Counted from the first letter of the whole stretch, positions 7,365 to 61,279 are shown. The stretch: DNA of 61,279 bases, filler included, from 5 parts of 5 records of this genome joined end to end with filler, not necessarily neighbours in it, one strand, 5' to 3'. Made by a program: numbers and translations. The notes: generated by a model from the letters alone, not told the origin.

Positions 7365-8665
7365 CCCAAAAGAAAGCCGGCAGCCGTCTGTTTCGGAAGG
7401 TGGCTCTGGAACACCTCTCCCTGCCCGAACAACTGGACCAGTTGATGCGGATCACGAGCCCCGCGGGCTGGGTGGCCCTATTGGCCATAGGCCTTCTTCT
7501 GGCCTGCGGGATCCTTTGGGGGATCTGGGGCTCCATCCCCACAAAGGTCGAGGGTTCCGGAATCCTCATGGGCCGCGGCGGGATCTTCTCCATTTCGGCC
7601 AGGGCGCCGGGAAGCGTCCAGGCCATCCGCCTGGATGAAGGGGATGAAGTGGAAGCGGGACAGACGGTTGTGGTCATCGGGCAACCGGACATTCGTGATA
7701 ATATTTTGGCCGCTCAAAATGAAGTGCGCGACCTGAATGCCCAGTATGAGCAGCACCGTGCATTCGGCAAAAAAGAAATGGCCCTTGAGGAACGCTCCAT
7801 TATTGAACAGCGTACCAATCTGCTTCACACCAATGAAAGCCTGAAAGCCCAGCTGAAACTGCTCAAAAAGCGTTTGAAGGACCAGGAACGCCTGGTGGAA
7901 CTGGGGCTGATTACACGGATGAAGGTATTGGATACCCGGATTGAAATCGACAACCGAACCGAAAAAATCAGACAGAACAAAAACCAGATCAAGCAGCTTT
8001 TGATCCAAAAACTTCAGACCAAGAACCGCATCCAGGAGGAACTTCTGGATCTCAAAGGCCGGATTCAGATGGCCCAAGATGAACTTCAAGGCCTGGAGAA
8101 CAGCCTGCAGATGGATTCCAAGGCCATCAGCGTATTCACCGGCAGGGTCATCAGCGTGGATGTGGCCCTGGGCGATGTGGTGCAGACCGGATCACGGCTC
8201 ATGACCATCGAGAAGACCGGGCGATATTCGAGGTTTCTGCAGGCGATTCTGTATGTTCCGGCAAACCAGGGCAAAAAGATCCGTAGCGGAATGCGGGTTC
8301 ATGTGTCCCCCTCCACGGTGAAAAAGGACCGGTACGGTTCCATCATGGGATTGGCAACCTACGTCTCCGCCTTTCCCGCCAACCCGGAAGCCATGAAACG
8401 GGTCCTTCTAAACGAAAAAATGGTGGAGGAACTGACCAAAAACGGCCCGCCCATCGAGGTCAGGGTGGCCCTGGTGCCTGATTCACGGACCCAGAGCTGG
8501 TACAAATGGACATCCTCCGACGGTCCCCCCGTCTCCATTCATGCGGGAACCATGTGTACGGCAACGGCCATCGTGAAACGTCAGCCGCCCGTTCAACTGG
8601 TCATTCCCCTCATGAAAAAATATCTTTTGGGTGCCGGTGAGGACCCCATGCCGTGGGGAGAGTAG
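7361..8665 (+). CDS. NHLP bacteriocin system secretion protein (HlyD-family membrane fusion protein)
   Basis: LFRKVALEHLSLPEQLDQL..ITSP N-terminus and YKWTSSDGPP C-terminus typical of NHLP-system HlyD proteins. ATGA overlap with the TolC stop. Confidence 0.93.
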   Translation: MTQKKAGSRLFRKVALEHLSLPEQLDQLMRITSPAGWVALLAIGLLLACGILWGIWGSIPTKVEGSGILMGRGGIFSISARAPGSVQAIRLDEGDEVEAGQTVVVIGQPDIRDNILAAQNEVRDLNAQYEQHRAFGKKEMALEERSIIEQRTNLLHTNESLKAQLKLLKKRLKDQERLVELGLITRMKVLDTRIEIDNRTEKIRQNKNQIKQLLIQKLQTKNRIQEELLDLKGRIQMAQDELQGLENSLQMDSKAISVFTGRVISVDVALGDVVQTGSRLMTIEKTGRYSRFLQAILYVPANQGKKIRSGMRVHVSPSTVKKDRYGSIMGLATYVSAFPANPEAMKRVLLNEKMVEELTKNGPPIEVRVALVPDSRTQSWYKWTSSDGPPVSIHAGTMCTATAIVKRQPPVQLVIPLMKKYLLGAGEDPMPWGE

Positions 8666-35398: not shown

Positions 35399-35627
35399 CT
35401 GTATGTATATATACTGGTTTAATAGCCTTTTTATTTTTGGGTTCACACGCTGTAAGATATAAAGTCTGCTCCTCGTCGGTGTGCTGGGGTTTTGGTTCCA
35501 GCTACAGCTTATCTACCCGTTTTCCCGCGCCAAAATCATCATTTCGATGTGCGGTGCGCCTGACAGAGGGTAAGGGTCTCCCATAACCCCGCGCCCTAAC
35601 CATCAACCGCTCATGCATGAGGGTACA

Positions 35628-38600
35628 ATGGGTCAACTGAGAAAAAAATTCGGCAAAATCGTCAACACGCTCCCCATTCCGCATCTCCTGGAACTCCAGG
35701 TTGATTCGTACAATCGTTTCCTGCAGGAAGGCACACCGCCGGCCAGCCGTGGAGACTTTGGACTTGAGGGTGTATTCCGTTCCGTGTTTCCCATTGAAGA
35801 TTTCAACAAGACCGCAAGCCTTGATTTCGTTTCTTATGAAATCGGCGAACCAAAATACGACGTCGATGAGTGCATCTCGAAAGGCCTGACCTACGAGACG
35901 CCCATCCGTATCACTGTCCGTCTCGTAGTTTTTGACGTGGATGAAGAGACTGACAACCGCACGATTCGCGACATCAAGGAACAGGACATTTACTTCGGAA
36001 CGCTTCCGCTGATGACCGTAAAAGGTACGTATGTAATCAATGGTACTGAACGTGTCATTGTTAACCAGCTCCAGCGTTCTCCCGGTATCATTTTCGAACA
36101 TGATTCCGGTAAGTCTCACTCCAGCCGTAAGGTGCTTTATTCGAGTCGCATCATTCCAATGCGCGGCTCCTGGTTGGATTTTGATTTCGACCATAAGGAC
36201 ATTCTGTACGTCCGCATTGACCGTCGCAGGAAGATGCCTGTCACCATATTGCTTAAAGCAATGGGACTTACTCGTGCTGATATCCTTGATTACTTCTACG
36301 ATATTGAATCCTACTCTTTGCTTAAAACCAAAGTGCAGCGAAAAGTCGTGGAAGGGCAATTCCGTAAGGAAGAAGCATTTGCCGATGTAAAAATTGGTGA
36401 CAAGGTCGTGGTCAAAAAAGGCCACAGCTTTACAAAGGGCGCTTGGAAGAAACTCGTCAAAAACGAGATCAAGAATATTGAAGTTGATCCGGTTTCTTTG
36501 CTTGGATTATACTTGGCAAAGGATATCGTCGATAAAAATGGCGAAGTCTTGGCCGAGGCTGCCGAAGAAGTGACCGTAGAACTTCTTGAGAAGCTCCGTG
36601 ATGCCAAGATCAAGGAGCTGGATGTGCTGCATACTCGCGGCATGGACGTTTCTTCCGCCTTGCGCGATACGCTTCTTTTGGACAAGACGACTGATCTCGA
36701 AACTGCCCAGATTGAGATTTACCGCAGACTTCGTCCAAGCTCTCCTCCCACGCCTGAAATTGCGTCCAATTTCTTTGAGAACTTGTTCCGCTCTTCCGAT
36801 TACTACGATCTGTCCAGCGTGGGGCGTTACAAACTGAACTCCCGTCTGAATCAGGATGTGGACCTGTCCACTCGTACCTTGACCAATGAGGATATTCTTC
36901 TCGCAGTCAAGGAACTTATGCGACTCAGGGACACTCACGGTCCTGCTGATGATATTGACCACTTGGGCAACCGTCGTGTGCGTCCTGTGGGTGAGTTGGT
37001 TGAGAATCAGTACCGCATCGGCCTCGTCCGCATGGAGCGCGCCATTAAAGAGCGCATGTCTTTGCAGGAAGTCGCCACGTTGATGCCTCATGATCTCATC
37101 AACCCGAAACCGGTTGCTGCAGTGTTGAAAGAGTTCTTCGGAACTTCACAGCTCAGTCAGTTCATGGATCAGACAAACCCACTTTCCGAAGTCACTCACA
37201 AGCGTCGCCTGTCCGCTCTTGGACCCGGTGGCCTGACACGTGAACGTGCTGGTTTTGAGGTTCGTGATGTGCACACCTCTCACTATGGTCGTATTTGTCC
37301 TATTGAAACGCCTGAAGGACCGAACATTGGTCTGATCGTTTCTTTGACGACATACGCCAAAGTGAACGATTATGGTTTTATTGAAACTCCGTATCGTAAG
37401 GTTGTGAATAAGCAGATCACCAATGACATCTCATATATTGACGCATCCAAGGAAGCCAAGGAAGTAGTGGCTCAGGCCAATGCTCCTTTGGATGACAAGG
37501 GCGTGTTTGTTGATCAGCGTATTAATGCGCGTCTTGCTGGTGATATTCAACAGGTCGCTGCAGAAGAAATAACTTGCATGGACATCAGCCCGAGTCAGAC
37601 GGTTTCCATCTCGGCTGCGCTGATTCCTTTCTTGGAACATGATGACGCCAACCGTGCGCTCATGGGTTCCAACATGATGCGTCAGGCTGTTCCCTTGCTT
37701 CAGGCTGAGGAACCCCTGGTCGGTACCAATATGGAAGGTCCGGTCGCTCGCGACTCAGGAGCTTGTGTGTTGGCCGAAGAAGACGGTGTTATCCATTTTG
37801 TGGATGCTGAGCGTATCATTATCAATTATGATAATGGAATCTCTCCGAATACCGGCGGTGCCAAGCATTATGAATTGCAGAAATGGCACAAATCCAACCA
37901 GAACTCCTGTTTTGGACAGACTCCTCGCGTACAGGTGGGGCAGCGAGTCAAAAAGGGTGCAGTTCTGGCTGATGGCCCCGGTATTGATCATGGTGAACTC
38001 GCTTTGGGTAAGAACCTGCTTGTCGCGTTCATGCCTTGGTGTGGTTTCAACTATGAGGACTCCATTCTCATTTCCGAGCGGATGGTCAAGGAAGACGTGT
38101 TCACCTCAATTCATATTGAGGAATTTGAATTAGTCGCCCGTGATACCAAGCTTGGACCCGAAGAAGTGACCCGCGATATTTCCAACGTCTCCGAAGAAAT
38201 GCTTCGGAACCTGGATGAATGCGGTATCATTCGAATTGGTGCTCGTATCAAGCCTGATGACATTATGGTTGGTAAAATCACACCTAAGGGTGAGACGCAG
38301 CTGACCCCGGAAGAGAAACTCCTCCGTGCCATCTTTGGTGATAAGGCTCGCGATGTTAAAAATACCTCTTTGAAGGTACCGCCGGGAATTTCCGGTACCA
38401 TCGTCGATGTCAAGGTCTTCAACCGTCGCTCCGGCGATAAGGATGACCGTACCAAGGCGATCGAGGATTCGGAACTTGCAGCCTTCGATGTCAAGGAAAT
38501 GAAGCATATCGCTTCCTTGACTGCTTCAACTCGAGACAAAGTTTGGGCAGCCTGCGAAGGTGGAAAGCTCAAGAAAGAGCTGATTGGACCCAAGAAGATC

Positions 38601-39749
38601 AAACTTGGCGCAGTCGGCGAAGTCATCGAGCGTGAAGCTCTGGATGCACTGCCTATTAAAAAGATGATCGGTATCTTTGATAAGGATATTAACGATCAAA
38701 TCAAGCTGATCGCTGCCGATTACGAGCAGCAGGTCGCTTTTATAAAGAACATCTATGACGTCAAGCGTGAGAAAGTCACCGAAGGTGATGATCTGCCTCC
38801 GGGCGTCATCAAGATGGTCAAGGTCTATGTCGCTGTTAAGCGTAAATTGAGCGTGGGCGATAAGATGGCTGGCCGTCACGGTAACAAGGGTGTCGTGTCC
38901 TGCATTCTTCCTGAGGAAGACATGCCGTTCTTTGACGACGGCACTCCCATGGATATCGTTTTGAATCCGCTGGGCGTTCCCTCCCGTATGAATATCGGGC
39001 AGATTATGGAAACCCACTTGGGCATGGCCGGTCGCAAGCTTGGTCAGCAGGTGACAAAGATGATGGAAGAGAGCGGCAACGCACTCAAGGACATCCGTGA
39101 GGACGTCAAATCCATTCTCGATACACCTGACATGTACGAACTCATCGATTCAATGGATGATGAAGAGTTCGTGACAGCACTCAAGCAGTTGAAAAACGGT
39201 ATCGTCGCCAAGACACCTGTGTTCGATGGCGCTAATGAAGACGGCATCTGGGGCTGGCTTGAAAAGGCCGGACTCGCCTCTGACGGTAAGTTCATTCTAT
39301 TTGATGGCCGTACAGGCGAACCGTTCCACAGCCGTGTCACTGTTGGCATCATGTACATTCTGAAACTGCATCACCTTGTTGACGAGAAGATTCACGCCCG
39401 GTCCACCGGTCCTTACTCCCTCGTCACGCAGCAGCCTTTGGGCGGTAAAGCTCAATTTGGTGGCCAGCGTTTGGGTGAGATGGAAGTCTGGGCCCTTGAG
39501 GCCTACGGCGCTGCCTATCTTCTGCAGGAGTTCCTCACTGTCAAATCTGACGATGTGCAGGGCCGTGTGAAGATGTACGAGAAGATTGTCAAGGGTGATA
39601 ACTTCCTGGAAGCCGGTTTGCCGGAATCCTTCAACGTTCTGGTCAAGGAACTCATGTCGCTGGGTCTGGATGTGACTCTGCACTATGAAGACCGTAAGCG
39701 TCCCGCTGCTCCTGCTGCCCCCGCAGCCATGAAGCCGCTGGTGGATTAA
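35628..39749 (+). CDS. rpoB: DNA-directed RNA polymerase subunit beta
   Basis: [46 protein letters not shown]. Confidence 0.99.
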
Positions 39750-44078: not shown

Positions 44079-46631
44079 ATGAAGTATTTAACATCCATCC
44101 TTATCATTCTAAGCCTATTTGCACTTTTTTCGTGTTCTATTGAAGATCTGTTCAAGCAGCCGGCCGTTGAGGTAACGGGCTATACTTTATTGGAATTACC
44201 GGCCGACACGGCATTTCTGGAGATAGACATGAGAATCACGAATATGGACAAGCGTCAGGTCCATGTTGCCGATGTGGATTATACGGTCGTTTTAGAAGGT
44301 ATTACACTACCACAGCAAGAAGCCGTTTTGGATATGGACATTTATCCTGATTCTACCATTGATATGACCTTACCTCTTTCCATGGTTACCTCAGACGCTG
44401 TCAAGATCCTGGCCAAATTGGATGCCGGTGAGGAATTGACCTATTCTGTTACCGGTGAATTTCATGTTGATGATCCCATTTATAAATTATTCGACCTCCC
44501 TTTGATCGTCAGCGGCACAGCCGATGTTGATGCCGGATATGAAGATTTTTATGAAATGCCCACCGTGACTCTGCTTGATATCAGCGGTAATTTTACGGAC
44601 AGCGGCAATGATACTTACGTATTTGATTTTATTGCAACATGCGCTGTGCACAATAATGATCCACGAGCTGCAACTATAGATGAGGTCGAGTATATTGTAG
44701 ATATAGAAGGCGTTCCTTCAGAAGAACATCTTCTTTCAGATACCTATCCTCAAGGTATCTCTTTAGAAGGCAATGGCGATGATACACTGACTTTACCAAT
44801 TATTTTGACTCTTGATGCAACAAGTGGTGCCCTATTGGCGACTGCCGTTCAAGATGATAATATTGATTATACCGTTCAGGGTGTGTTTCATGCCACTAAC
44901 GTTGATTCCATCAACACGGATTTTACTCTGCCAATGTATCTAAGCGGTAATATGAATGCTAATTTCCTTTCAACTTTATTCGTCCAGCCAACTGTTGAAG
45001 TAACAGGTTATTCTCTAAAAGCACTACCCACCGATACAACCTTCATGGAGATAGATATGGTCCTGACCAATAATGATTCCCGCACTGCTGTGATCGACGA
45101 TGTGGATTATCAGGTTGTGATAGAGGGTGCGGAATCGCTGGTGGAATACGTTGATATTGATCAAAGCATCGGTGCGACACCGCTTGAACTGACCATGCCC
45201 CTAACGCTGATGACCGAAGATGCAATTGCCTTGCTGGAAAAGCTGGATGCCGGTGAAGAATTAAGCTATGTTGCAAGCGGTACTTTTCATATAGATGACC
45301 CGGTATTGAACCAATTCGATCTTCCTCTGGAAATCGAGGGATCGGCTTCGGTTGATGTGGGTTATGAGGATTTCTATGAAAAACCGAGCTTAACACTTTT
45401 AGATATTGCAGGTGATTTCACACAAAACATTCAGGGTAATTATATATTTGATTTTGATGTAACCTGCCTCGTTCAGAATAACGACTCACGATCAGTTACC
45501 CTGGATGATGTCGAATATCTGGTTTACATTGAAGGTGTAGCCAGTGAATCACATAAGTATTCCGATACCTATACTAATCCTTTGGAAGTTACAGGTAGCG
45601 GATCAGATACCCTGGTTCTGCCTATTGAATTGACCCTGGATGAAAGCTCCGGATCACAACTTGCAAATGCCATCAAAGATGGTGCTATCGATTACGAAGT
45701 CGAAGGTTTGATCTCAGTAACGCATGTCAATGCTTCTCCTCTTGCTTTTGAATTACCATTGGTCATGAGCGGCAGTACCGAAGCGGATATCTTTGCTCAA
45801 CTTTTCGAACAACCCACCATCGAAGTCACGGGATATGAGCTTTTGGAACTTCCCGGCGATACGGCATTTATGAGCATCAAGTTCTTGTTAACTAATAATG
45901 ACACAAGAACCGCTCGAATTTATGATGCTGATTATCAGGTTGTTGTAGATGGTTTTAGTGCAATCCCGGAATACGTGGTTGTTGATCAAGTCATTCCTGC
46001 AGCTGATACTATCACACTTGAAATGCCCCTTACTTTACTTACCGCAGATGCCATTCAAGTCCTTGATAAATTAGATGCCGGTGAATCGATCGGCTATGCT
46101 GTAACAGGTACATTCCATATCGATGATCCTGTCCTGGAAGAGTTCGATCTACCTATTGATATATCCGGAACCGCTACGGTGGACGTTGGTTATGAAGATT
46201 TTTATGAACAACCTGAGGTCACAGTCAACAGTATCGCAGGTACTTACCGAATAAACGGATTTACTTCCTATACACTGAATTTTGATGTGAACTGTTCGGT
46301 GCAGAATTTGGATACGCGTTCAGCGGAGATCGATGAGATCGAATACACCGTCTCAATAGAGGGCACTAAATCGGGCAAGCATTATTACAGCAATACATAC
46401 ACAAGTAATTTTAGCATTGCAGGTAGCACAACCGAAACCCTTGTTCTGCCCGTTACATTCAATCTTGGTATATCCGGTGGGGCCGCAATGGTAGCTGCTT
46501 GTGCAGACGGCACGATCAATTATATAGTTGAAGGTACTTTCCATGTGGTTCTGGTGGACGGCACAACGGCAGACTTTACTTTACCGCTGTATATCACAGG
46601 ATCTGTGCCTGCTACGATGGTCGCTAATTAG
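44079..46631 (+). CDS. acidic lipoprotein with six LEA_2/WHy-like domains (3 x A-B repeat)
   Basis: Lipobox LFSC. A units start LFKQPAVEVTGY / LFVQPTVEVTGY / LFEQPTIEVTGY and B units start FYEMPTV / FYEKPSL / FYEQPEV. Recurring N.D.R..I..V.Y.V..EG motif. Confidence 0.8.
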   Translation: MKYLTSILIILSLFALFSCSIEDLFKQPAVEVTGYTLLELPADTAFLEIDMRITNMDKRQVHVADVDYTVVLEGITLPQQEAVLDMDIYPDSTIDMTLPLSMVTSDAVKILAKLDAGEELTYSVTGEFHVDDPIYKLFDLPLIVSGTADVDAGYEDFYEMPTVTLLDISGNFTDSGNDTYVFDFIATCAVHNNDPRAATIDEVEYIVDIEGVPSEEHLLSDTYPQGISLEGNGDDTLTLPIILTLDATSGALLATAVQDDNIDYTVQGVFHATNVDSINTDFTLPMYLSGNMNANFLSTLFVQPTVEVTGYSLKALPTDTTFMEIDMVLTNNDSRTAVIDDVDYQVVIEGAESLVEYVDIDQSIGATPLELTMPLTLMTEDAIALLEKLDAGEELSYVASGTFHIDDPVLNQFDLPLEIEGSASVDVGYEDFYEKPSLTLLDIAGDFTQNIQGNYIFDFDVTCLVQNNDSRSVTLDDVEYLVYIEGVASESHKYSDTYTNPLEVTGSGSDTLVLPIELTLDESSGSQLANAIKDGAIDYEVEGLISVTHVNASPLAFELPLVMSGSTEADIFAQLFEQPTIEVTGYELLELPGDTAFMSIKFLLTNNDTRTARIYDADYQVVVDGFSAIPEYVVVDQVIPAADTITLEMPLTLLTADAIQVLDKLDAGESIGYAVTGTFHIDDPVLEEFDLPIDISGTATVDVGYEDFYEQPEVTVNSIAGTYRINGFTSYTLNFDVNCSVQNLDTRSAEIDEIEYTVSIEGTKSGKHYYSNTYTSNFSIAGSTTETLVLPVTFNLGISGGAAMVAACADGTINYIVEGTFHVVLVDGTTADFTLPLYITGSVPATMVAN

Positions 46632-46675
46632 TTGACAGTTGTCAATTGACAATTGACAATTTTAAGAGAAAACAC

Positions 46676-47392
46676 ATGAAATATCACATTGAAAAATATT
46701 TTGTACTACTGCTACTTATTCTATTAAGCGCTTGTACATCAGTGCAACCCGGTTCTGAAACACTGTATCCTTCTGATGATCTTGTCGTTGAATATCATTC
46801 TAAATGGACAAAGATATCCTACCCTAAACGCATAAAGACCTTCAAGGAAGATCCCTTACAACGGGGTGATATCGTTTTTCTTGGGAATAGTATCACACAG
46901 GCCGGTGGTGATTGGTCAGCAAAGTTCGGCCGAGATGATATCAAGAACCGTGGTATCAGCGGTGATGTCACCGATGGCGTTTTAGCACGGCTTGATGAAA
47001 TATGTCATGCCAAACCTAAAGCCGTTTTCTTGATGATCGGGATCAATGATATCAATAACTGGAACAATGATTGGGGCATTCCCTCCCCTGAATATGTAGG
47101 GGAGAACATAACCAAGATCACTAAAGAGATCCATAAAAGAAGTCCCAGAACTAAAATATATGTCCAGACTGTTCTTCCCACTGATCTTGAAGATGTAAAA
47201 CATGCTATTGTAAAAGTCAACAATATGGTCAAGTTGGCTGAAAAAGAGGGACATTACAAGGTTATTGATCTACATTCGGCATTCATTAACTCCGATGGAC
47301 TGATCAAAGCTGAATTGACCAACGATGGAGTTCATTTAACCCAAGCAGGATATGATCTATGGGTTGAACTTGTTAAGGAATATATCAAATGA
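46676..47392 (+). CDS. GDSL/SGNH hydrolase lipoprotein
   Basis: LSAC lipobox, FLGNSIT, NRGISGD, GIND, DGVH. Confidence 0.92.
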   Translation: MKYHIEKYFVLLLLILLSACTSVQPGSETLYPSDDLVVEYHSKWTKISYPKRIKTFKEDPLQRGDIVFLGNSITQAGGDWSAKFGRDDIKNRGISGDVTDGVLARLDEICHAKPKAVFLMIGINDINNWNNDWGIPSPEYVGENITKITKEIHKRSPRTKIYVQTVLPTDLEDVKHAIVKVNNMVKLAEKEGHYKVIDLHSAFINSDGLIKAELTNDGVHLTQAGYDLWVELVKEYIK

Positions 47393-52344: not shown

Positions 52345-53403
52345 ATGAATTGGTTTCCTGTTTTTTCCAATAAAGGTGCCTCGCTCCAATGTCGTATGGA
52401 GGAAATCTGGGAGCAGGTAATCTCACGTCCTATTGTCTGCGGGGAAAGATTCAATAGGACTATTCGGAGAAAAGTCGGTGTGGTGCAGGATCAGAAGGAA
52501 GATCTTGAAGCAACAATAAAAGGATCTTTGGGTTTAAAGGGATTAGCGCAATTAGAATCAACAATTAGGTCTGCCTCTGGTTCATCAATTAGATTTGAAG
52601 AATATAAGGAGATAGAAGAATTTATTGATATAACAGCACCTGAGCATGGCATGTATTTGCTTTGTTATTTTCAAAAAAAGCAAATATTTACTTTTGAAGG
52701 GCGCATGCCAAGATATTTTGGCATGAGTAATACATTAAATCAAACAGTACATCGCTGGGTTGATGAGTGCAGAACTAAATCACGCAAATATGAATATTAC
52801 CCGCCTTGCGACGAAAAAGGAACTCCACCTCCACATCTTTCAATGGATGAGCCACCTGACGGGATAATTGAAATTGTAGTTGACGGCGGAAAACTTTCAA
52901 TCGAAACGCCATATCGAATTAAAGATAACGGAATTGAATTTGATATGTTAGGTTTACGAGCTGAAGCTGACATTTCAAAATTGATATCTTCGCGTATTGA
53001 ATTGCCGATCGCTGCCTTGCCAGAAGAAACACAATGCATCACTGGAGCAAAAGGTAATATCAATGCTCTCATAATGCAGCCAATGGAATTGCTAGCTCCC
53101 GTTGAATCTACTGGATTCGTATCCTCATCTTTTTTGCCTGACTTGGATGCTTCAAAATATCTATACTCATCTTTGGGGCGTAAGTATAAGGGCGTTACCG
53201 CTAGAAGAATTTACAGAAGAAGTCCTAACTTTCGAAAGTGCTATTTTAGAAAACAGCGCGCTAACTTGTTTGCCAAATCAATATCACCCGGCCGCGTAAC
53301 CATAGATAAAATAGTAGCCACCCCTCCCGTTCATAACATTAATGAAATGTGGAGATCAATAAATGCGTTGCCGTCAGTAAGCCTAAAAAAAATATTAAAG
53401 TAA
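52345..53403 (+). CDS. hypothetical protein, integron gene cassette
   Basis: AGGAGG RBS, AT-rich 352 aa ORF between two attC-like sites. No family recognised. Confidence 0.75.
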   Translation: MNWFPVFSNKGASLQCRMEEIWEQVISRPIVCGERFNRTIRRKVGVVQDQKEDLEATIKGSLGLKGLAQLESTIRSASGSSIRFEEYKEIEEFIDITAPEHGMYLLCYFQKKQIFTFEGRMPRYFGMSNTLNQTVHRWVDECRTKSRKYEYYPPCDEKGTPPPHLSMDEPPDGIIEIVVDGGKLSIETPYRIKDNGIEFDMLGLRAEADISKLISSRIELPIAALPEETQCITGAKGNINALIMQPMELLAPVESTGFVSSSFLPDLDASKYLYSSLGRKYKGVTARRIYRRSPNFRKCYFRKQRANLFAKSISPGRVTIDKIVATPPVHNINEMWRSINALPSVSLKKILK

Positions 53404-53428
53404 TGAATGCTTAACAAATAAAGGATTA

Positions 53429-53520
53429 GTTCAACAATCGGCTCAACCTGGCCGCGAGAAGCTCGGCGGCGCTAAAGCGGGCAAGGTTATTGGCGCGGCA
53501 GGTTACCCGAAGCGTTCGGT
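53429..53520 (+). mobile_element. integron attC site 2
   Basis: GTTCAAC..CGGCTCAACCTGgCCGCG..CGCGGCAGGTTACCCG..GTTCGGT. An orphan GCTTAAC at 53409-53415 is complementary to the R' of attC1. Confidence 0.7.
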
Positions 53521-53522
53521 AG

Positions 53523-53740
53523 GAACTGAATAATTACGACTATTGCGGGCACAGCGCCCTGATGGGCAATAAGCAAAGAAAATGGCAGGATGTGGATTAT
53601 GTTCTGGGACATTTCGGAAGCTCGGCCGGCCAGTCGAAAAAATCATATCTTAATTTTATGGAAAATGGAATTGGCCAGGGGTGCCGGGAAGAGCTGACAG
53701 GCGGGGGTGATTGATTCGGAGTGTTGGCGACTGGTCATAG
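53523..53740 (+). pseudogene. internal fragment of a REP-associated tyrosine transposase (RAYT/IS200-like)
   Basis: ELNNYDYCGHSALMGNKQRKWQDVDYVLGHFG..YLNFMENGIGQG.REELTGGG, a frameshift, then LIRSVGDW. Confidence 0.7.
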
Positions 53741-54204
53741 AGTTGGTCCCGACTGGTCATAACCGGAGGTTAATCACAAAATCGGGCAGATGTCAAATCG
53801 CCAGACCTGAAAAATAATAATGTCAATTAGATATGTCGCAAAATTTTATAGCCCTACAAGGCTTTCGGTGGTGTTGCGCACAACCCCCCGTGTATTCATG
53901 GCAGTTTGTGCTTCCTTGTGGCGTATGGGCTTTCCTAAAGCCCTTCTGGCAGTAAAATGAAAAAACCAAGGGAAAGCAAAAAGATGAAGTTTTTTTGGAA
54001 AAAATTCAAATTTTTTTAATCCTTATATCGGAATTCCAGGCTCAATAGAGTAGAGTTGATACGCGAGGCCAAATGATTTAATATGTTTTTTTTGACCCGG
54101 CCTATTCATGAATAATCAGGGATACCCAACAGAATGGAGGAAGGTTGTTACGGCATCAGTCCCATTTCCGGTTGCAACCTCCCCTTTGCCGACATGAGAA
54201 TTTA

Positions 54205-55761
54205 ATGTTCCGAAAAGGTATCACGCCCGTCAAGGTCGCAACCAGCGCAACCCTCAATGAGATATTCGCTTGCGCGCAAACAGGGTGGGCGTCTCAAACA
54301 ATCCATGTTTCCGAGGGGGGGGAACTCTCCTTTGCTCAGCTTTGCGCGAAGATCGAGACAGTCTCGAACCGGCTTCGCGACGCCGGACTCAAGCCGGGGG
54401 ACCGCGTTGCGATCGTCTCCTTTGATCCGCTTGACTGCCTGACTGTCTTCTGGGGGACAACGCTGATCGGAGGGATCTTCGTTCCGCTCGATCCGGCCGC
54501 TGGAAGAACGACCCTTGAATATATTATCGAGCACGCCGCTCCCAGGTTTTTCTTCACCGACAATCGCGAAAAAGACCGAATCACTTCGCTGAAAAACCCT
54601 GCGGGGAAGGTGGAAATAGTCGCTTTCGACGTCTTCAGACCGCAGCAGACAGCAAAAAGAGATAAAGGGGATGCATCCCCTCCCGCACCTGAAACCCCGG
54701 CCGCAATCCTCTACACCTCCGGATCGACCGGGCGGCCGAAAGGCGTGTTGCATTCTCATGGCGCGCTGTGCCGCTCCGGTCAGGCCATGGCATCGCACTA
54801 TTGCTGGAGCAGTGACGACCGTTTTCTGAACCTGGCCCCCCCGCACACCATGAGCGGGCTGCGCAACAGCGCCATTGTCCCCTTTATTGCCGGTTGTCAA
54901 CTCCAGAGACCGGAACGGGAAGCGTTCGGGTTTTTTTTCAAGGTCATCGAATCGGTCAAGCGTAATCGGATCACCCTGCTCGGCTGCGCCCCGATTTTCG
55001 TCAAGCAATTGAGCCTGTTCAAGGACCGGATTGATCGCGTCGACCTAGAAAGCCTCCGCGCCATCCTTTGTACCGGTTCGATGCTGCCGCTGAGCATCGT
55101 CAAGGATATTCACAAGCATTTTGCACTCCCCGTGGTCAATTACTACGGTTTGACCGAAACCGCCGGTTTCTGCGCCGGTTATTCCCTCGAAAAGTATCTA
55201 GGGCAGGAAGGCGGAATCGGTTTTCCGGTGGAATCGGACATGGAGATACGCAATGAAACGGGCGAAGTGCGGCCCGGCGAGACCGCCGGAGAGCTGGTCA
55301 TCCGCTCAGATAACCTGATGCTCGGTTACTATCGGGACCAGGAACTGACCGCCGCCGTCCTGCGGGACGGAGCGTTTTTTACCGGAGATATTGTGGAAAT
55401 CGCCGCTGACGGCGAAGTGATCCTCATCGGCAGAAAGAAGAACTTCATCAAAAACGCCCATACCGAAATGATCTGTTTCGAAGAGGTTGAGCTCACCCTT
55501 GAGCAGCACCCCCAGGTGCTGGAGGCGGCGACCTGTGGCGCCATGAGCCGGCTCGACGAAGAAGAGTTGGCCGCTTTTGTGGTGACCCGCGAACCGGTCC
55601 CATCTCAAGATGATTTCACCGCAAATCTGAAAACTTGGCTGCTTGAACAGCTGGGGCCGCACAAGGTTCCCCAAAGGATAAGAATTGTCTCAGAGCTGCC
55701 TCGCATCAGCGCCGGCAAGCTCGATCGCCAGAAAATCGAAAGGATGTTCAATGATTGTTGA
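54205..55761 (+). CDS. AMP-binding adenylate-forming enzyme (acyl-CoA/acyl-ACP ligase-like)
   Basis: YTSGSTGRPKG, YYGLTE, FTGD, GRKK, GKLDR. Confidence 0.93.
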   Translation: MFRKGITPVKVATSATLNEIFACAQTGWASQTIHVSEGGELSFAQLCAKIETVSNRLRDAGLKPGDRVAIVSFDPLDCLTVFWGTTLIGGIFVPLDPAAGRTTLEYIIEHAAPRFFFTDNREKDRITSLKNPAGKVEIVAFDVFRPQQTAKRDKGDASPPAPETPAAILYTSGSTGRPKGVLHSHGALCRSGQAMASHYCWSSDDRFLNLAPPHTMSGLRNSAIVPFIAGCQLQRPEREAFGFFFKVIESVKRNRITLLGCAPIFVKQLSLFKDRIDRVDLESLRAILCTGSMLPLSIVKDIHKHFALPVVNYYGLTETAGFCAGYSLEKYLGQEGGIGFPVESDMEIRNETGEVRPGETAGELVIRSDNLMLGYYRDQELTAAVLRDGAFFTGDIVEIAADGEVILIGRKKNFIKNAHTEMICFEEVELTLEQHPQVLEAATCGAMSRLDEEELAAFVVTREPVPSQDDFTANLKTWLLEQLGPHKVPQRIRIVSELPRISAGKLDRQKIERMFNDC

Positions 55762-57580
55762 TTTCCCCGGAACCGTGGCCGCCGCTTTCCTGTGCGCGGA
55801 AGAAAAATCCCTCGCCCAGAAGACCTTTATCACCACCTCCATGAATCGGATTTCCTACGGGGAAACCACCGCCATGATCCGCAAGCTGACCTCGCTCTAC
55901 CAAAGCTGGGGACTTGCGCCTGGGAACCGGGTGGCCTTTTCCACCAAAGACGACATTCACGCCTCGATCCTGTTCTTGTCCCTGCTCTGTAACGGCTTGA
56001 CAGCGGTCTTCCTCGATCCGGAAACTAAAAGGGATCGCGCGGCGCACCTGCTCGATGTCTCGAAACCGAAAGCGGTCATTTTGGACGGCGACTTGATGGA
56101 GAGCTGGGACGTCTCTGGCGTGGAAACGGTTCTCTGCGTCGATACCCGCTGTCGCGTCGGCGGCCTGAGCAAACTCTTTGGCAAAAAACGGAGCGCTACT
56201 GACGTGACGACCTATCCGTTGATCCTCGGTAATTTCGAGGCCGGCGAGCCGCCGAAAGAAACGGATCCGGAGAGCGACGCTTTCATTCTGTTCACCTCCG
56301 GAACAACAAACGCGCCAAAGGGAGTCCGAATCAGTCATCGGGCGCTTTGTGTGCACCTTGCAACACTTACCAAGGTCTACGGATATTCTTCGGAAACCCG
56401 AATTTTGGATATTCTCCCCCTTTCGCATGTTGATGGTATCGTCCAAGGTCCAATAATTGCATTCTTTAACACCGCTCAACTCTTTAATCCGTTTCGTTTT
56501 ACAATTTCAAGAATCATCGAATTGCTTGATGCGGTCTATCATTACCGCATTACCCATTTTATCTGCGTTCCAACCATGCTTGCATTGATTTTGCGCTTTG
56601 CCTCTGAGGAGAAAGACGCTTTCCTCACGGAGGATTTTCAGTACATAAGTTCTAGCGGAGCACAACTGGAGGCTGATTTCTGGCAAAGATTTGAAGAGAA
56701 TTTTGGTGTGATGATCATCAATCTCTATGGTTTGACGGAGACGGTCGTGGGCGGAATATTTGCCGGTCCGGACAAAGAAAGTCACAAAATCGGTACAATC
56801 GGAAAGCCGGTCGATTGTGAAGCGCGGATTATTGACGAAAAGGGCAGAGATGTCCCCAAAGGGGAGGCGGGCGAACTGTTGCTTCGCGGTGCCAACATCA
56901 TGAGCGGATACTTTGATGACCATGAAGCAACCGCAGAGGCCTTTATTGATGGGTGGTTCAGAACCGGGGACATCGCCTGTTGTGATGAAGACGGCATCTA
57001 CCGGATCGTCGGCAGGAAGAAATCGACCATCATCTGTGGCGGCGTCAACGTGCAACCGGAGGAGGTTGCCGAGGTGCTGCATACCCATCCGCATGTTACG
57101 GAAGCGGTCGCTTTCGGTCTCCCGGACCAGGACTGGGGCGAAAAAGTTGTTGCGGCGGTCGCCATCAATGACGAAGCGACCTCCCAAGAGGATTTGATCC
57201 GGTTCTGCCGCCACAAACTTGAGGAGGTCAAGGTTCCCGATACGATCGACATCTTCGATGCCCTGCCGCGCGGTCGCTCCGGAAAGGTCCAACTGGGTGA
57301 AGTCAAGGCGCAATTTTTCGACGGCCACGCTGCGAGCGCTGACGCTTCAAATGAGATGGAGCAGCAGATTATCGAAATCGCAGCCGCTTCTTTCAAAGTC
57401 CCCGTCGAATCCCTGACCATCAATGACTCCGCCGAAACCACTACCGGTTGGGATTCCCTGAGCCATTTGGAGATGATCGTCGTCTTGGAGGAAACCTTCT
57501 CCATCAAATTCTCCCCAGTGGAAATCATGCAGATGGACAATCTCGCAACTGCCGTGAAAACCGTGCGGCAAAAGGCCTGA
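55751..57580 (+). CDS. AMP-binding enzyme fused to a C-terminal acyl carrier protein domain
   Basis: FTSGTTNAPKG, YGLTE, FRTGD, and C-terminal GWDSLSHLEMIVVLEETFSIKF with the phosphopantetheine Ser. Confidence 0.92.
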   Translation: MIVDFPGTVAAAFLCAEEKSLAQKTFITTSMNRISYGETTAMIRKLTSLYQSWGLAPGNRVAFSTKDDIHASILFLSLLCNGLTAVFLDPETKRDRAAHLLDVSKPKAVILDGDLMESWDVSGVETVLCVDTRCRVGGLSKLFGKKRSATDVTTYPLILGNFEAGEPPKETDPESDAFILFTSGTTNAPKGVRISHRALCVHLATLTKVYGYSSETRILDILPLSHVDGIVQGPIIAFFNTAQLFNPFRFTISRIIELLDAVYHYRITHFICVPTMLALILRFASEEKDAFLTEDFQYISSSGAQLEADFWQRFEENFGVMIINLYGLTETVVGGIFAGPDKESHKIGTIGKPVDCEARIIDEKGRDVPKGEAGELLLRGANIMSGYFDDHEATAEAFIDGWFRTGDIACCDEDGIYRIVGRKKSTIICGGVNVQPEEVAEVLHTHPHVTEAVAFGLPDQDWGEKVVAAVAINDEATSQEDLIRFCRHKLEEVKVPDTIDIFDALPRGRSGKVQLGEVKAQFFDGHAASADASNEMEQQIIEIAAASFKVPVESLTINDSAETTTGWDSLSHLEMIVVLEETFSIKFSPVEIMQMDNLATAVKTVRQKA

Positions 57581-57603
57581 GACTCCGCCCCGAGGCGACA
57601 ATA

Positions 57604-58536
57604 TTGTATTACACCAAAAACAGATGGACCGATAAGTCCGGTGCTCCGCTCTGGACCTGGCTGGTCGCCGGGTTCCTGGCGGTGGGTTTTATCGGGATTT
57701 CCTGTTTTGGGTTTTCCCGCCCCTATTATCTTCATTTCTTCAATGCAGAACGACTCGAGCGTTTTTCGCGACCGGAGAAAGATAACCCGGTAAAAATAGT
57801 GGCTATCGGAACATCCCTTACCCAATGCGCTCTGTATGGAGACAAAAAAATGGAACGTCTTGCTGAAGAATCCGGCAAGAACATAGCGTTTATCAGGTTT
57901 ACACTCCCCGCAGTTACTATTGATGGTTTTTTTGACATAACCGAAGCTGCAATAAATTCTCCAGCAGACATTATTTTTATTGAATCAGGGATATTCGGTC
58001 TGGATTTAGAATATTACAAATATAATAATCACGACATTCATCGCTCATACTTAAGAATGAAACTAAAAGAAATCATCAATTATATGATTCCCATAAGAAT
58101 AGACGAACAAGACAATCGTCACAATGTCAACTATTTCGACCGAGCTGTTAATATAGAAACCAAACCGTTAACAGAAGATGAGATCAAGAAATACAAGGAA
58201 AAGTCTGTGCGATACAGAGTCCGAAACCTCTCTGAAAGCGCAGATTATAAGCGGCTTTTTAACAAAGCCATCGAAAAGGGAAAGGTTGTGGTTTTTCTGG
58301 ATCTTTCGCGCTCTAAAGAGGCGTGGAATATTCTGCCATCGGCCCTTGAACGTGATTTTGACAAAATAATGGCCGGTTACAAGGAAACCTACGACATTAA
58401 CTTCATCAAGTTCCCATATCGCCTGCCGCGCGGCTATTACCTAGACTTCGCCCACCTAAACGCCAAAGGGCGTAAGTTCTATTCAGAATGGTTCCTGGAT
58501 GAGCTTGCTTCGCTGATGGAGAGAACGGCGCCATGA
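57604..58536 (+). CDS. membrane-anchored SGNH-like protein (DltD/AlgJ-like acyltransferase)
   Basis: N-terminal TM helix, AIGTSL (G-x-S) and DFAHLN (DxxH) motifs. TTG start after GAGG is inferred. Confidence 0.7.
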   Translation: MYYTKNRWTDKSGAPLWTWLVAGFLAVGFIGISCFGFSRPYYLHFFNAERLERFSRPEKDNPVKIVAIGTSLTQCALYGDKKMERLAEESGKNIAFIRFTLPAVTIDGFFDITEAAINSPADIIFIESGIFGLDLEYYKYNNHDIHRSYLRMKLKEIINYMIPIRIDEQDNRHNVNYFDRAVNIETKPLTEDEIKKYKEKSVRYRVRNLSESADYKRLFNKAIEKGKVVVFLDLSRSKEAWNILPSALERDFDKIMAGYKETYDINFIKFPYRLPRGYYLDFAHLNAKGRKFYSEWFLDELASLMERTAP

Positions 58537-59648
58537 TGACTTATTTCTCTTTGGAGATGTGCGTCGCTCTGATCATTTTCGTTCTTGGCGCCTGGCTGCC
58601 GCCGAAAAAGCAGCAGCCGTTGGTCATGGCACTGATCACCGCCGCCTTCATGGCCATTTACGCCCCCCTGTCGCTGGGCCTGCTCGCCGCGACGACCTTG
58701 CTGGTCTATTACCTGACCGGTCGCAGGCAGCCGGGGACTCCGGCCGTCATCGCAGCCATTACGCTCATCGGTCTACTGCTGGTTGTTTACAAACTCCGCG
58801 CCACCTTTTCAGACGGTGCTTTGCTGATTCCTCTTGGCTTGTCCTACTACGCCTTCAGACAGATCCATTACATCTTCGAAGCCTACAAGAACCGGATCGG
58901 CAAGAGTTCGCTGTTTCAGCTTGTCTGCTATCTGTTTTTCCTACCCACCCTGATCGTCGGTCCGATCCACCGCTATCACGCCTTCGCCAGGGACCAGCGC
59001 CGAAGACGCTGGGATACGGCCAAGTTTACCTACGGGCTGGAGCGGATTCTGTCCGGCTATCTGAAGGTGACGATTCTGGCCAACTACATGGTGAACCGCC
59101 TGTTGGCCAACGCTGTCAAGGCGTACGACGGGAATGGCCTCATGCAGCTCTACCTCGATTCGGTCCTCTCCTGGGCCGACCTCTACCTGCAATTCAGCGG
59201 CTATTCGGATATCGCCATCGGCGTTGCCGCACTGGCCGGTTTTGAAATCATGGAGAACTTCAAGTTCCCCTTCCTGGCCGAAAACATCAAAGATTTCTGG
59301 GGACGCTGGCATATCTCTCTGACCAGTTGGTGCCGCGAATACGTCTTCCATCCGATGCTCTCCTTCAGCCGTCGGCCCTTTTTGTCGGTCGCGCTGACCA
59401 TGCTCATCCTGGGGCTCTGGCATGAGGTCTCGACGCGCTACATCCTCTGGGGCATCTATCACGCCGTCGGCATCTCGGTCTGGCACCAGTTCCAGAAGCT
59501 GAAACCGGCGCAGGGGAAAACCGAGTCACTCTACCTCAAACTGCCTGGCCGCGCACTCGCAACTCTGATTACCCTGAATTTCGTGATTCTGAGCTATCCT
59601 GTGACAAGCTATGTGCACGATCTGTTGTGGGGGAGAATAAGCCGATGA
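58533..59648 (+). CDS. MBOAT family acyltransferase (DltB/AlgI-like)
   Basis: PLGLSYYAF, FFLPTL.VGPI, FSGYSDIAIG, ENF..PF, FWGRWHISL, GLWH. Confidence 0.95.
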   Translation: MMTYFSLEMCVALIIFVLGAWLPPKKQQPLVMALITAAFMAIYAPLSLGLLAATTLLVYYLTGRRQPGTPAVIAAITLIGLLLVVYKLRATFSDGALLIPLGLSYYAFRQIHYIFEAYKNRIGKSSLFQLVCYLFFLPTLIVGPIHRYHAFARDQRRRRWDTAKFTYGLERILSGYLKVTILANYMVNRLLANAVKAYDGNGLMQLYLDSVLSWADLYLQFSGYSDIAIGVAALAGFEIMENFKFPFLAENIKDFWGRWHISLTSWCREYVFHPMLSFSRRPFLSVALTMLILGLWHEVSTRYILWGIYHAVGISVWHQFQKLKPAQGKTESLYLKLPGRALATLITLNFVILSYPVTSYVHDLLWGRISR

Positions 59649-59788
59649 CGTTCTATGGTCTGTTGAGAAAAGCACTGCCGAAGCAGCTCGCGAATATCTC
59701 CTACGTCCTCTTCTGCGCCTGCGCGTTGATTCTGATCTACATGTTTTGGCCTGCGGCGGTCAGTTTGTTTGTTTATATGAAGTTGTAA
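59645..59788 (+). CDS. 47-aa DltX-like membrane peptide, absent from the ORF track
   Basis: ATGA overlap with the MBOAT stop. MTFYGLLRKALPKQLANISYVLFCACALILIYMFWPAAVSLFVYMKL* has one TM helix and a C-terminal F-x-Y-x-x-L hexapeptide. Confidence 0.8.
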   Translation: MTFYGLLRKALPKQLANISYVLFCACALILIYMFWPAAVSLFVYMKL

Positions 59789-59864
59789 AGACTGACACAA
59801 AAACAGCAATGGCAACCACACAAAGATGGCGCCCCCCCTTTGCAAAAGGGAACGATGGGGAATC

Positions 59865-60803
59865 TTATTCCGTCCCGTAAATCTCCATACACTCTGCGCA
59901 GATGGTCGGTTCGAAATTCCCTTCCGCCATCCCTTTGCGGAACAACTCATACCCTTTGCCGTTCCAGATCTCCATCAGCGACGACTCGGCGGCGTTCCCC
60001 AGCCGATTGACCCCGTTGTAATCACGGCAACAGGGAACCACGTCGCCGTTCCATTGCACCACCAGATACTGCCAGGGGAATGGGCAAGCCATCTTGGGCG
60101 GTAATTTCTCCACCTTACCGAGATCCGTCATCTCTTTCTTGTTCCAGGGAAAGAAGTCCCTGATCTCGATCTCCGCTCCACGCGCCCGCCATTGGCTGAT
60201 GAACTGCTCTTCGCCCTCTTCGTTGCAGTACATGCGGATCATTCGCACCACAACCTGCGAGTGGAGATCGTTCTTCGCCATCGATTTCAACAGTATTTCA
60301 AGGTTCTCTTCGGCCAGACCGTAATCGGCATTTTTTCCCCGGATCATCCGGTAACTCTCCGCATCGTAGCCATCCATGGAAACGATCAGCGTCACCGGCC
60401 CTCTGGTGAGGATCTTTTCGGCCAATTCGGGCGTCAAGTGCGGGGCATTGACCGACAGAACCAGGTTCAGCCCCAGGTCGGCTCCGTAGCCCACCATCTC
60501 GGCGATTTCCGGATGCAGCAGCGATTCGCCGAAATGGAACAGCTCGATCTCTTTCTGGCGAACCGACGCGCTGTAACCGGCGACTTCGTCGATCACCTTG
60601 GTGTAAAGAGCGAAATCCATGTATCCCACCGAACGGGTCATATACTTGCCGCGTGGACACATCATGCAGGAGTAAGGGCAGGCGTTGGTCGGCTCGATCT
60701 GGTGCAGATGCGGTTCGGCAGTGCGCCGCAACTCCAGAAACTGGGCCCAGCCTTGTCTGGTTTGGAGTGCTGACGGAAATCTTCGCTTTTTTTCGGTCAT
60801 CAA
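59865..60803 (-). CDS. radical SAM protein with SPASM/Twitch domain
   Basis: EPTNACPYSCMMCPR, FGESLLHP, and C-terminal CPFPW..W.G.V.PCC.D..CAEC. Confidence 0.92.
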   Translation of the reverse strand: MMTEKKRRFPSALQTRQGWAQFLELRRTAEPHLHQIEPTNACPYSCMMCPRGKYMTRSVGYMDFALYTKVIDEVAGYSASVRQKEIELFHFGESLLHPEIAEMVGYGADLGLNLVLSVNAPHLTPELAEKILTRGPVTLIVSMDGYDAESYRMIRGKNADYGLAEENLEILLKSMAKNDLHSQVVVRMIRMYCNEEGEEQFISQWRARGAEIEIRDFFPWNKKEMTDLGKVEKLPPKMACPFPWQYLVVQWNGDVVPCCRDYNGVNRLGNAAESSLMEIWNGKGYELFRKGMAEGNFEPTICAECMEIYGTE

Positions 60804-60845: not shown

Positions 60846-61279
60846 TTACGTTCTTGTGCCGGTACTTTTAGGAAATATAAGATCGTGGATCGCCTGACGG
60901 TCCAGTTTGTCGTTAGGGTTTTTCGGCAGAGCGTCTAGAAAGTGAACGCTGGTGGGCAGCATGTAACCGGGCAGCCGCTCTTTCAACCGCGCCATCACTC
61001 GTTTATCGTCCATCTCAATGTCAACACAGAGGGCCGCTCCGATAAAGCTGCTGCCTTTGCGGACAGTGTGAATCGCCGCCGCCTGGCGGACGCCCGGCAG
61101 TTTCCAGAGAGCGTTCTCGATTTCTTCCAGTTCGACCCTGTAACCCCGGTGTTGAACCTGGTTGTCAACACGCCCATGGATATATAGCATGCCGTTTACG
61201 GGGTCCTGATGGACAACGTCGCCGGTATGGTAAACGATATCCGTGTAATGGTCGTGAAGAGGATTCTGTCGAAACAACC
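60846..61279 (-). CDS. amino-acid adenylation domain protein (DltA/NRPS A-domain-like), 5' partial
   Basis: QNPLHD.Y.D.VYHTGD, GRVDNQV..RGYRVELEEIE, LPGYMLP, LPKN.N.KLDR. Confidence 0.88.
   Translation of the reverse strand, partial: LFRQNPLHDHYTDIVYHTGDVVHQDPVNGMLYIHGRVDNQVQHRGYRVELEEIENALWKLPGVRQAAAIHTVRKGSSFIGAALCVDIEMDDKRVMARLKERLPGYMLPTSVHFLDALPKNPNDKLDRQAIHDLIFPKSTGTRT

Follow-up and report, generated by a model that had tools for sequence, protein, structure and literature searches.

The locus described here, a run of five genes at positions 54205-59788 (+ strand) of a stretch of DNA of 61,279 nucleotides (nt; five parts of five records of one genome joined end to end with filler, hereafter the window), raises the question of whether the logic of the Dlt pathway, in which an acyl group taken from a carrier protein is passed on by a small tyrosine-tailed protein, may also serve diderm bacteria and a different acyl group. 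A first-pass annotation, made from the sequence alone, had read the five genes as a complete Dlt-analogous pathway for envelope acylation, and this reading is supported by their domain content, fold and coupling, and by the conservation of both the cassette and the tyrosine. We consider it likely that the operon encodes a carrier-dependent acylation pathway built on a membrane-bound O-acyltransferase (MBOAT) plus an SGNH protein, with a DltX-like tyrosine shuttle supplied in trans, in a diderm and with an acyl group other than that of Dlt.

The point of reference is provided by the accessible text of a 2025 Journal of Biological Chemistry paper on PatA/PatB (PMC12148441), according to which DltB is the MBOAT known to take the acyl group from a carrier protein, the C-terminal hexapeptide tyrosine of the microprotein DltX (motif F-x-Y-x-x-F) passes this group on, and MBOAT pathways other than Dlt are said to have neither a carrier protein nor a microprotein of the DltX kind. 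In the same text, PatA and AlgI are presented as using acetyl-coenzyme A (acetyl-CoA) as donor and as having the tyrosine hexapeptide at the outer face and an SGNH protein as partner, DltX is described (relative to PatA) as a separately encoded last helix and tail, and the MBOAT-SGNH pairs covered there acylate cell-envelope polymers. What the first-pass annotation had stated about DltX and the cis tails of AlgI/PatA-type MBOATs agrees with this source, as well as with a generic MBOAT sample in which 76 of 83 open reading frames (ORFs) have the tail motif in cis at the MBOAT end.

The ligase, ligase-carrier fusion, SGNH protein, MBOAT and translationally coupled peptide of 47 amino acids (aa) that had been annotated in the window are all present where they had been placed:

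54205-55761, + strand: ligase 1, an ANL-superfamily adenylating enzyme of 518 aa (Pfam)
55751-57580, + strand: ligase 2, with a phosphopantetheine carrier domain fused at its C-terminus (Pfam)
57604-58536, + strand: membrane-anchored SGNH-fold protein of 310 aa, with a putative DltD-like role (AlphaFold2 model and fold search)
58533-59648, + strand: short DltB-like MBOAT of 371 aa, lacking a C-terminal tyrosine motif (Pfam MBOAT)
59645-59788, + strand: single-pass membrane microprotein of 47 aa ending in FVYMKL, the proposed acyl-tyrosine shuttle (Y44)

These genes overlap or nearly touch: the ATG of ligase 2 (55751) lies inside the last 11 nt of ligase 1, and the MBOAT and peptide starts overlap, as ATGA, the stops of the SGNH and MBOAT genes, respectively. 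The SGNH gene begins at a TTG (57604) with GAGG 8 nt upstream, a start supported by its agreement with those of three homologues, and an alternative start for ligase 1 is found at a TTG (54145) behind GGAGG.

The peptide has basic residues near its N-terminus (R8, K9 and K13), from which we infer that its tail faces outward, followed by one hydrophobic span and the C-terminal FVYMKL. The same five genes, accompanied by a convergent radical SAM gene, occur in two metagenome-assembled genomes (MAGs) labelled 'uncultured delta proteobacterium' (loci L092 and L093), where the 47-aa orthologues end in FVYMML and FAYLKL, respectively; among these three closest copies the peptide evolves at a dN/dS of 0.29-0.43. 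Beyond these relatives, the family motif W-H-x-S-L-[ST]-x-W-C-[RK]-[DE]-Y was back-translated and species-representative genomes were scanned with it as DNA, which yielded at least 120 loci (the census counts on the cassette given here are a sample from these). The motif was specific, in that among 106 loci it matched only 4 loci of the short MBOAT family and their 3 duplicates. The strict protein signature was demanding, as it left 44 of 120 loci without a signature ORF, of which at least 14 do hold family members.

The peptide was screened for as a same-strand ORF at the MBOAT stop that starts with ATG, contains a hydrophobic span and has [FILMVYWP]-x-Y within its last 16 residues (in loci with at least 200 nt downstream). 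Such an ORF was present in 52 of the 55 loci with a strict-signature, tail-less MBOAT (L198 and L223 have a peptide ORF of this kind that lacks the ATG), and in the control, formed by the stops of the remaining ORFs (250 aa or longer) of these 55 loci, it was found in 2 of 280 cases. Because of this difference, the occurrence of the peptide at the MBOAT stop is more than chance. Within the tail-less MBOAT clade (see below) the peptide was detected in 64 of 66 distinct testable loci, which places the cassette with its peptide in at least 64 distinct genomes. In 45 of the 52 loci it starts between -16 and +9 nt of the point where the MBOAT stop ends, and in 13 of these with the very ATGA overlap of the window. 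When the 52 peptides were aligned (consensus MYxxLxxxxPxxxA...WYxxL...FxYxxx), Y44 was invariant and F42 conserved in at least 90%; the motif itself is composed of F (44) or I (6), any residue (R in 23), Y, L (22), any residue, and a final L, F, W, I or Y. The ORF and its tyrosine, on whose conservation beside homologous MBOATs the first-pass annotation had staked its reading, are thereby found to be conserved.

The description of the peptide as hidden holds in part: the window's own copy is absent from the public collection that was checked and the named relatives (5 of 8 clusters) are called merely 'hypothetical protein', but 8 of the 10 related peptides that were looked up are already catalogued in public collections. 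A subgroup of the peptides (L143, L196, L223, L189, L217, L133, L180 and L109, several of them from Alphaproteobacteria/Pseudomonadota) has its tyrosine inside I-[IV]-Y-[ILV]-D, with 3-9 more residues behind this motif, and so differs from the usual end three residues past the tyrosine.

The MBOAT is recognized by Pfam (87.3 bits), and its only NCBIfam match is DltB (TIGR04091), at 187 bits and below the cut-off of 375, so that the equivalog threshold is not reached. A profile of 24 relatives retrieved only DltB chains from the PDB (6bug, 2.1e-52, and 8jem), along nearly the full length, and H260 and H297 are invariant among these 24 sequences. The protein ends without an F-x-Y tail, as do 11 close relatives, and in a FastTree phylogeny of 191 MBOATs it falls into a single clade of 68 tail-less proteins (support 99, a local Shimodaira-Hasegawa-like value and not a bootstrap), the other side of the tree being formed by 117 tailed and 6 tail-less proteins; the absence of a C-terminal tyrosine motif from the MBOAT, as first annotated, is borne out by the sequence end. 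A profile of the peptide aligned by hhalign to the last 62 residues of 40 tailed MBOATs (probability 62.6%, E 7.2e-5, 27 columns) across both the helix and the motif, and because of this alignment the peptide looks like the last MBOAT helix and shuttle tail encoded as a separate gene.

Outside the main clade, tail-less MBOATs with a separate tyrosine-tailed peptide were encountered in L031, L046, L016, L098 and L100: L031 contains two MBOAT-peptide pairs (7601-7861 and 10284-10397, ending in QFVYVMF), and in L046 a Bacteroidaceae MBOAT is followed by a 33-aa ORF (9369-9470) ending in SSFIYFNF. The tyrosine tail seems to have been split off the MBOAT more than once. A set of Bacillota loci (L110, L119, L147, L149-L153, L155, L174-L178, L181 and L226) encodes long MBOATs (~525-545 aa) that share the W-C-[RK]-[DE]-Y signature of the short family, have a fused tail ending in FIYRGF and show no linked ligase within the 8-kb loci.

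No sequence family in Pfam or NCBIfam matches the 310-aa protein, and its annotation as an SGNH protein draws its support from structure. The AlphaFold2 model (pLDDT 90.1, pTM 0.87) comprises an N-terminal helix (16-37) and an alpha/beta domain, and is predicted with high confidence to adopt the SGNH fold: Foldseek returned 49 PDB matches at E <= 0.001, including DltD (6pfx, 6o93) and PatB (8tlb, 7trr), and VIA-align gave Z-scores of 12-14 to GDSL/SGNH enzymes, and to DltD (3bma) a Z of 11.6 with a root-mean-square deviation of 4.2 over 222 aligned residues (the longest alignment listed). The family comprises 438 cluster representatives at E <= 0.001 (HMMER), and in an alignment of 69 of its sequences no variation occurs at G69 or H284, and S71 and D281 are conserved in at least 90%; S71, D281 and H284 form a putative catalytic triad. 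Among species representatives the family is sparse: the narrow SGNH profile finds members in 2 of 401 genomes of the class, and the broader one in 11 of 401 genomes of the phylum.

Both ligases appear, from their sequence matches, to be carboxylic-acid/CoA-ligase-like and not DltA-like, as had been annotated; CoA-ligase families rank first in NCBIfam for each (all under their cut-offs), and DltA models are absent from the best 25 NCBIfam families of either. Ligase 1 (Pfam AMP-binding 226.8 bits, AMP-binding_C 48.4 bits) is closest in NCBIfam to a long-chain-fatty-acid--CoA ligase subfamily (265.6 bits, under the cut-off of 476) and in the PDB to the LgrA adenylation domain (180 bits), with malonyl-CoA synthetase next. 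In amino-acid-activating adenylation domains the Asp of position A4 binds the alpha-amino group, and the LgrA sequence at this position, FDIS, aligns to HTMS in ligase 1, which has Thr and no Asp. Ligase 2 (AMP-binding 208.3, AMP-binding_C 59.3 and PP-binding 24.8 bits, the last against a cut-off of 20.8) has its best PDB matches (206-163 bits) in oxalyl-CoA synthetase (206 bits), feruloyl-CoA synthetase and malonyl-CoA synthetase. Its carrier serine sits in the motif GWDSLSHL; this serine is kept in 43 of 43 distinct ligase-carrier fusions, and the D-S-[LIMVF] motif in 40 of them (the other 3 read TSL or DSY). Because CoA-ligase families head the matches of both ligases and ligase 1 lacks the A4 Asp, we conclude that the substrate would be a carboxylic acid rather than D-alanine. 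Each of the 31 loci that extend more than 3.2 kb upstream has a ligase there on the same strand, labelled a ligase-carrier in the loci displayed.

Two ligase 1 homologues are longer than that of the window. In Nitrospina (L012:2215-3600, +) and Cytophaga aurantiaca (L148:5300-6601, -) the enzyme bears an N-terminal extension of ~430-460 aa which matches no Pfam family and is absent from ligase 1 of the window; these two extensions share homology (28% identity, E 5e-57), and a weak methyltransferase match was seen in the extension region of L208. The ORF at 52345-53403 of the window has no similarity to the Nitrospina extension (E 4.2).

Taken together, domain content, fold, catalytic residues, gene coupling and the conservation of the cassette and its tyrosine are what the analysis shows, and by analogy with Dlt they suggest the following course of events. 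Ligase 2 would adenylate a carboxylic acid other than an alpha-amino acid and load it as a thioester onto its own fused carrier, and ligase 1 may activate the same or a second acid. The short DltB-like MBOAT would then receive the acyl group on the cytoplasmic side from the carrier and pass it to Tyr44 of the microprotein, whose C-terminal F-x-Y-x-x-L would lie at the outer face and which would replace the final helix with its tyrosine tail, a part of the same chain in AlgI/PatA-type MBOATs. Finally, the membrane-anchored SGNH protein may accept the acyl group on Ser71 and transfer it to a periplasmic or envelope acceptor.

Several observations weigh against this proposal. The Pfam DltX family (PF12459) does not match the window peptide and matches 1 of its 52 relatives (E 0.033), an hhalign comparison with a single DltX (L007) reached a probability of 1% over 9 columns, the last motif residue of the window peptide is L and not F, and L212 and L164, 2 of the 66 testable loci of the clade, lack a detectable peptide. 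(An Atlas cluster with 12% DltX members ranks 16th for the peptide, at 0.87, which we take as a lead only.) As the screen demanded a tyrosine, its invariance is partly built in, and the real evidence lies in the contrast with the control stops. For the SGNH protein there is no Pfam DltD (PF04914) match (1 of 69 family members matches, E 0.0016), and its fold Z-score to DltD (11.6) is no higher than those to generic GDSL esterases (12-14). The gene immediately upstream of the MBOAT is recognised by the SGNH profile in only 31 of 50 loci, and 36 of 50 have a gene so recognised on the MBOAT strand; several loci that escape the profile carry an unrecognised gene of the right size in the SGNH slot. 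Moreover, the proposal gives ligase 1 no definite role, and just 7 of the 12 loci that extend more than 4.9 kb upstream encode two ligases.

The predicted interaction of the MBOAT with the peptide counts on both sides of the balance. Of the complex prediction proposed in the first-pass annotation (MBOAT, peptide and SGNH protein), the MBOAT-peptide pair was run as one two-chain prediction without alignments, and it scored 0.47 against 0.00 for the best of three controls, with runs that agree in at least 45% of contacts and a partner pLDDT of at least 71. Of 78 solved complexes 51 reach the mark set for this score, as do 2 of 108 mismatched pairs, but at scores of 0.60 or less only 5 of the 78 solved complexes do so, together with all 4 of the passing mismatches (of 180), and the solved DltB complexes may also colour the value obtained for our pair. 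The score falls in the band that the tool grades as weak, and we take it as weak support for binding.

This weakness leaves some room for the view that the microprotein is a structural subunit, that is, a split-off last MBOAT helix beside which the acyl group leaves the MBOAT straight for the SGNH protein or the acceptor and bypasses the tyrosine. The alignment of the peptide with the last helix of fused MBOATs, and the split forms that arose elsewhere in the tree (L031, L046), would suit such a role; the most conserved positions of the peptide, however, are F42 and Y44 of the shuttle motif, and we hold a purely structural subunit to be improbable. The scores of both ligases, which are best against CoA-ligase families, could likewise be taken to mean that ligase 1 makes an acyl-CoA for the MBOAT, much as acetyl-CoA serves PatA and AlgI, and that the ligase 2-carrier fusion serves some other reaction. 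Against this stand the distribution of the genes, since the upstream ligase (a ligase-carrier where displayed) is constant in the 31 loci and the second ligase is present only in the 7 of 12, and the likeness of the MBOAT to DltB rather than to AlgI/PatA, DltB being the MBOAT known (in the accessible text of PMC12148441) to be supplied with its acyl group by a carrier protein; an acyl-CoA donor is thus very unlikely.

The neighbouring radical SAM/SPASM gene opens two further alternatives. As it adjoins a small ORF, the 47-aa product might be taken for a precursor peptide of the ribosomally synthesised and post-translationally modified (RiPP) kind that is processed by this enzyme and has nothing to do with the MBOAT, but the peptide, which forms a membrane helix and ends in a tail of the shuttle type, follows the MBOAT in 64 of 66 loci, and a radical SAM gene lies beside the cassette in only 8 of the at least 120 scanned loci, plus the window and L092, so that we give this idea almost no credence. 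A better, though still small, chance is due to the idea that the cassette builds a group and attaches it to a lipid or a small molecule (lipid A, an aminolipid or a secreted metabolite) instead of an envelope polymer, with the ligases, the carrier and the radical SAM enzyme acting as a small natural-product-like assembly line. Two adenylating enzymes, a carrier and a recurrent radical SAM/SPASM neighbour do suggest that the acyl group is processed, and the cassette does not sit within polysaccharide loci, its flanks differing between the window, L012, L092 and L093 and consisting of housekeeping or unrelated genes. On the other hand, the MBOAT-SGNH pairs described in the accessible part of PMC12148441 acylate cell-envelope polymers, and this alternative departs from the carrier-dependent shuttle pathway in the acceptor only.

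How, then, does this shuttle pathway relate to the known systems? With DltXABCD (which acts on teichoic acid in Firmicutes) it shares an adenylating enzyme, a phosphopantetheinyl carrier, a short tail-less MBOAT, an N-terminally anchored SGNH transferase and a single-pass microprotein of ~45-50 aa with a C-terminal F-x-Y. It differs in having two CoA-ligase-like ligases in place of DltA, in the fusion of the carrier to ligase 2 (free-standing in Dlt), in a microprotein gene that comes after the MBOAT gene and overlaps it, where the order dltXABCD (given in the accessible text of PMC5541007) has it at the head of the operon, in its diderm host phyla, and in that the Pfam DltX and DltD families do not recognise the window proteins. 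With PatA/PatB and AlgI/AlgJ/AlgX, as far as they are described in the text of PMC12148441 available, it has in common an MBOAT, an SGNH partner and a tyrosine hexapeptide; unlike the MBOATs of that type (~470-520 aa, motif in cis, acetyl-CoA as donor, and neither carrier nor microprotein), that of the window has 371 aa and its motif in trans, and the family has a ligase upstream in every locus with sufficient upstream sequence. The Bordetella pertussis dra locus, which by its title (cited in PMC9410548) transfers D-alanine to an outer-membrane component, is likewise a Dlt-type pathway in a diderm. The locus thus displays the features of the general MBOAT-SGNH kind (an MBOAT with conserved His, an SGNH partner with a triad, and a tyrosine hexapeptide after a helix, here in trans), and as regards Dlt proper it lacks a DltA-type ligase, a DltB assignment by TIGR04091 and a DltD assignment by PF04914. 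Literature searches returned no description of this cassette, although most subscription journals and supplements lay outside the search, so that a survey could have escaped it.

In a wider sense, we lean, by a narrow measure, towards the view that such cassettes are widespread and undescribed acylation machines of Gram-negative bacteria, in which a ligase-fused carrier and a tyrosine microprotein in trans place an acyl group that is neither acetyl nor an amino acid on a common envelope component. If this is true, the Dlt logic would not be peculiar to the D-alanylation of teichoic acids, but would represent a general acylation route of diderms, in which a radical SAM/SPASM enzyme may, in some lineages (that of the window included), tailor the acyl group. 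The cassette has both the carrier and the microprotein that non-Dlt MBOAT pathways are said to lack in the accessible text of PMC12148441, and it suggests that the MBOAT family allows two placements of the shuttle tail, one in cis and one in trans. It also points to an undescribed envelope modification that is testable in the laboratory, as several of the carriers are cultured, and it provides a naming rule for unnamed ORFs of ~45 aa that are listed, if a name is given at all, as 'hypothetical protein'.

The displayed origins of the 68-member MBOAT clade are Bacteroidota, Pseudomonadota, Nitrospinota, Planctomycetota, Verrucomicrobiota and Thermodesulfobacteriota, and the cultured carriers include Pedobacter gandavensis, Flavisolibacter ginsengisoli, Donghicola tyrosinivorans and Desulfopila sp. 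These six phyla, all diderm, and the nearest relatives, found in 'delta proteobacterium' MAGs, support the earlier assignment of the host as probably a diderm. The MBOAT is 72% and 71% identical to its nearest relatives in these MAGs, and an RNA-polymerase subunit encoded in the window (35613-39749, 1378 aa) is only 57-58% identical to that of the same MAGs (G001, G002), and because of this disparity we consider that the operon may have moved laterally. The G+C content of the window swings between 0.40 and 0.60.

Downstream, the operon is bounded by two features:

59830-59854, called on the - strand: G+C-rich hairpin of 11 pairs, a possible terminator (consensus scan, a pattern match only)
59865-60803, - strand: radical SAM/SPASM protein of 312 aa (Pfam Radical_SAM and SPASM)

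The hairpin lies between the operon and the convergent radical SAM/SPASM gene, the product of which scores 45 bits for Radical_SAM and 62.7 bits for SPASM. Homologues of this protein (355-538 bits) are found beside the cassette in L092, L093, L113, L116, L124, L129, L136, L167 and L216; the gene is convergent with the operon in the window and in the two closest relatives; Bacteroidales-type loci have it downstream, on the same strand, and a Desulfocapsaceae MAG has it upstream. This enzyme might tailor the acyl group.

On the other side of the operon lies a 740-bp gap (53404-54144), and the upstream flank also contains the housekeeping genes pta, obg, dprA and gcpE. The gap is non-coding and is preceded by the ORF at 52345-53403 (+; 352 aa), which has no Pfam family and lies in a stretch of low G+C content (0.36-0.43). 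At its far end, the window breaks off within a third adenylating enzyme, of which the C-terminal part is encoded (60846-61277, -); in NCBIfam this part matches exosortase-A-associated ligase, non-ribosomal peptide synthetase and DltA models best, and it has no counterpart in L092 or L093. Elsewhere, positions 44079-47392 (+) encode a protein of 850 aa (with three LEA_2 stretches) and after it a GDSL lipase, an ASCH protein and a GNAT acetyltransferase.

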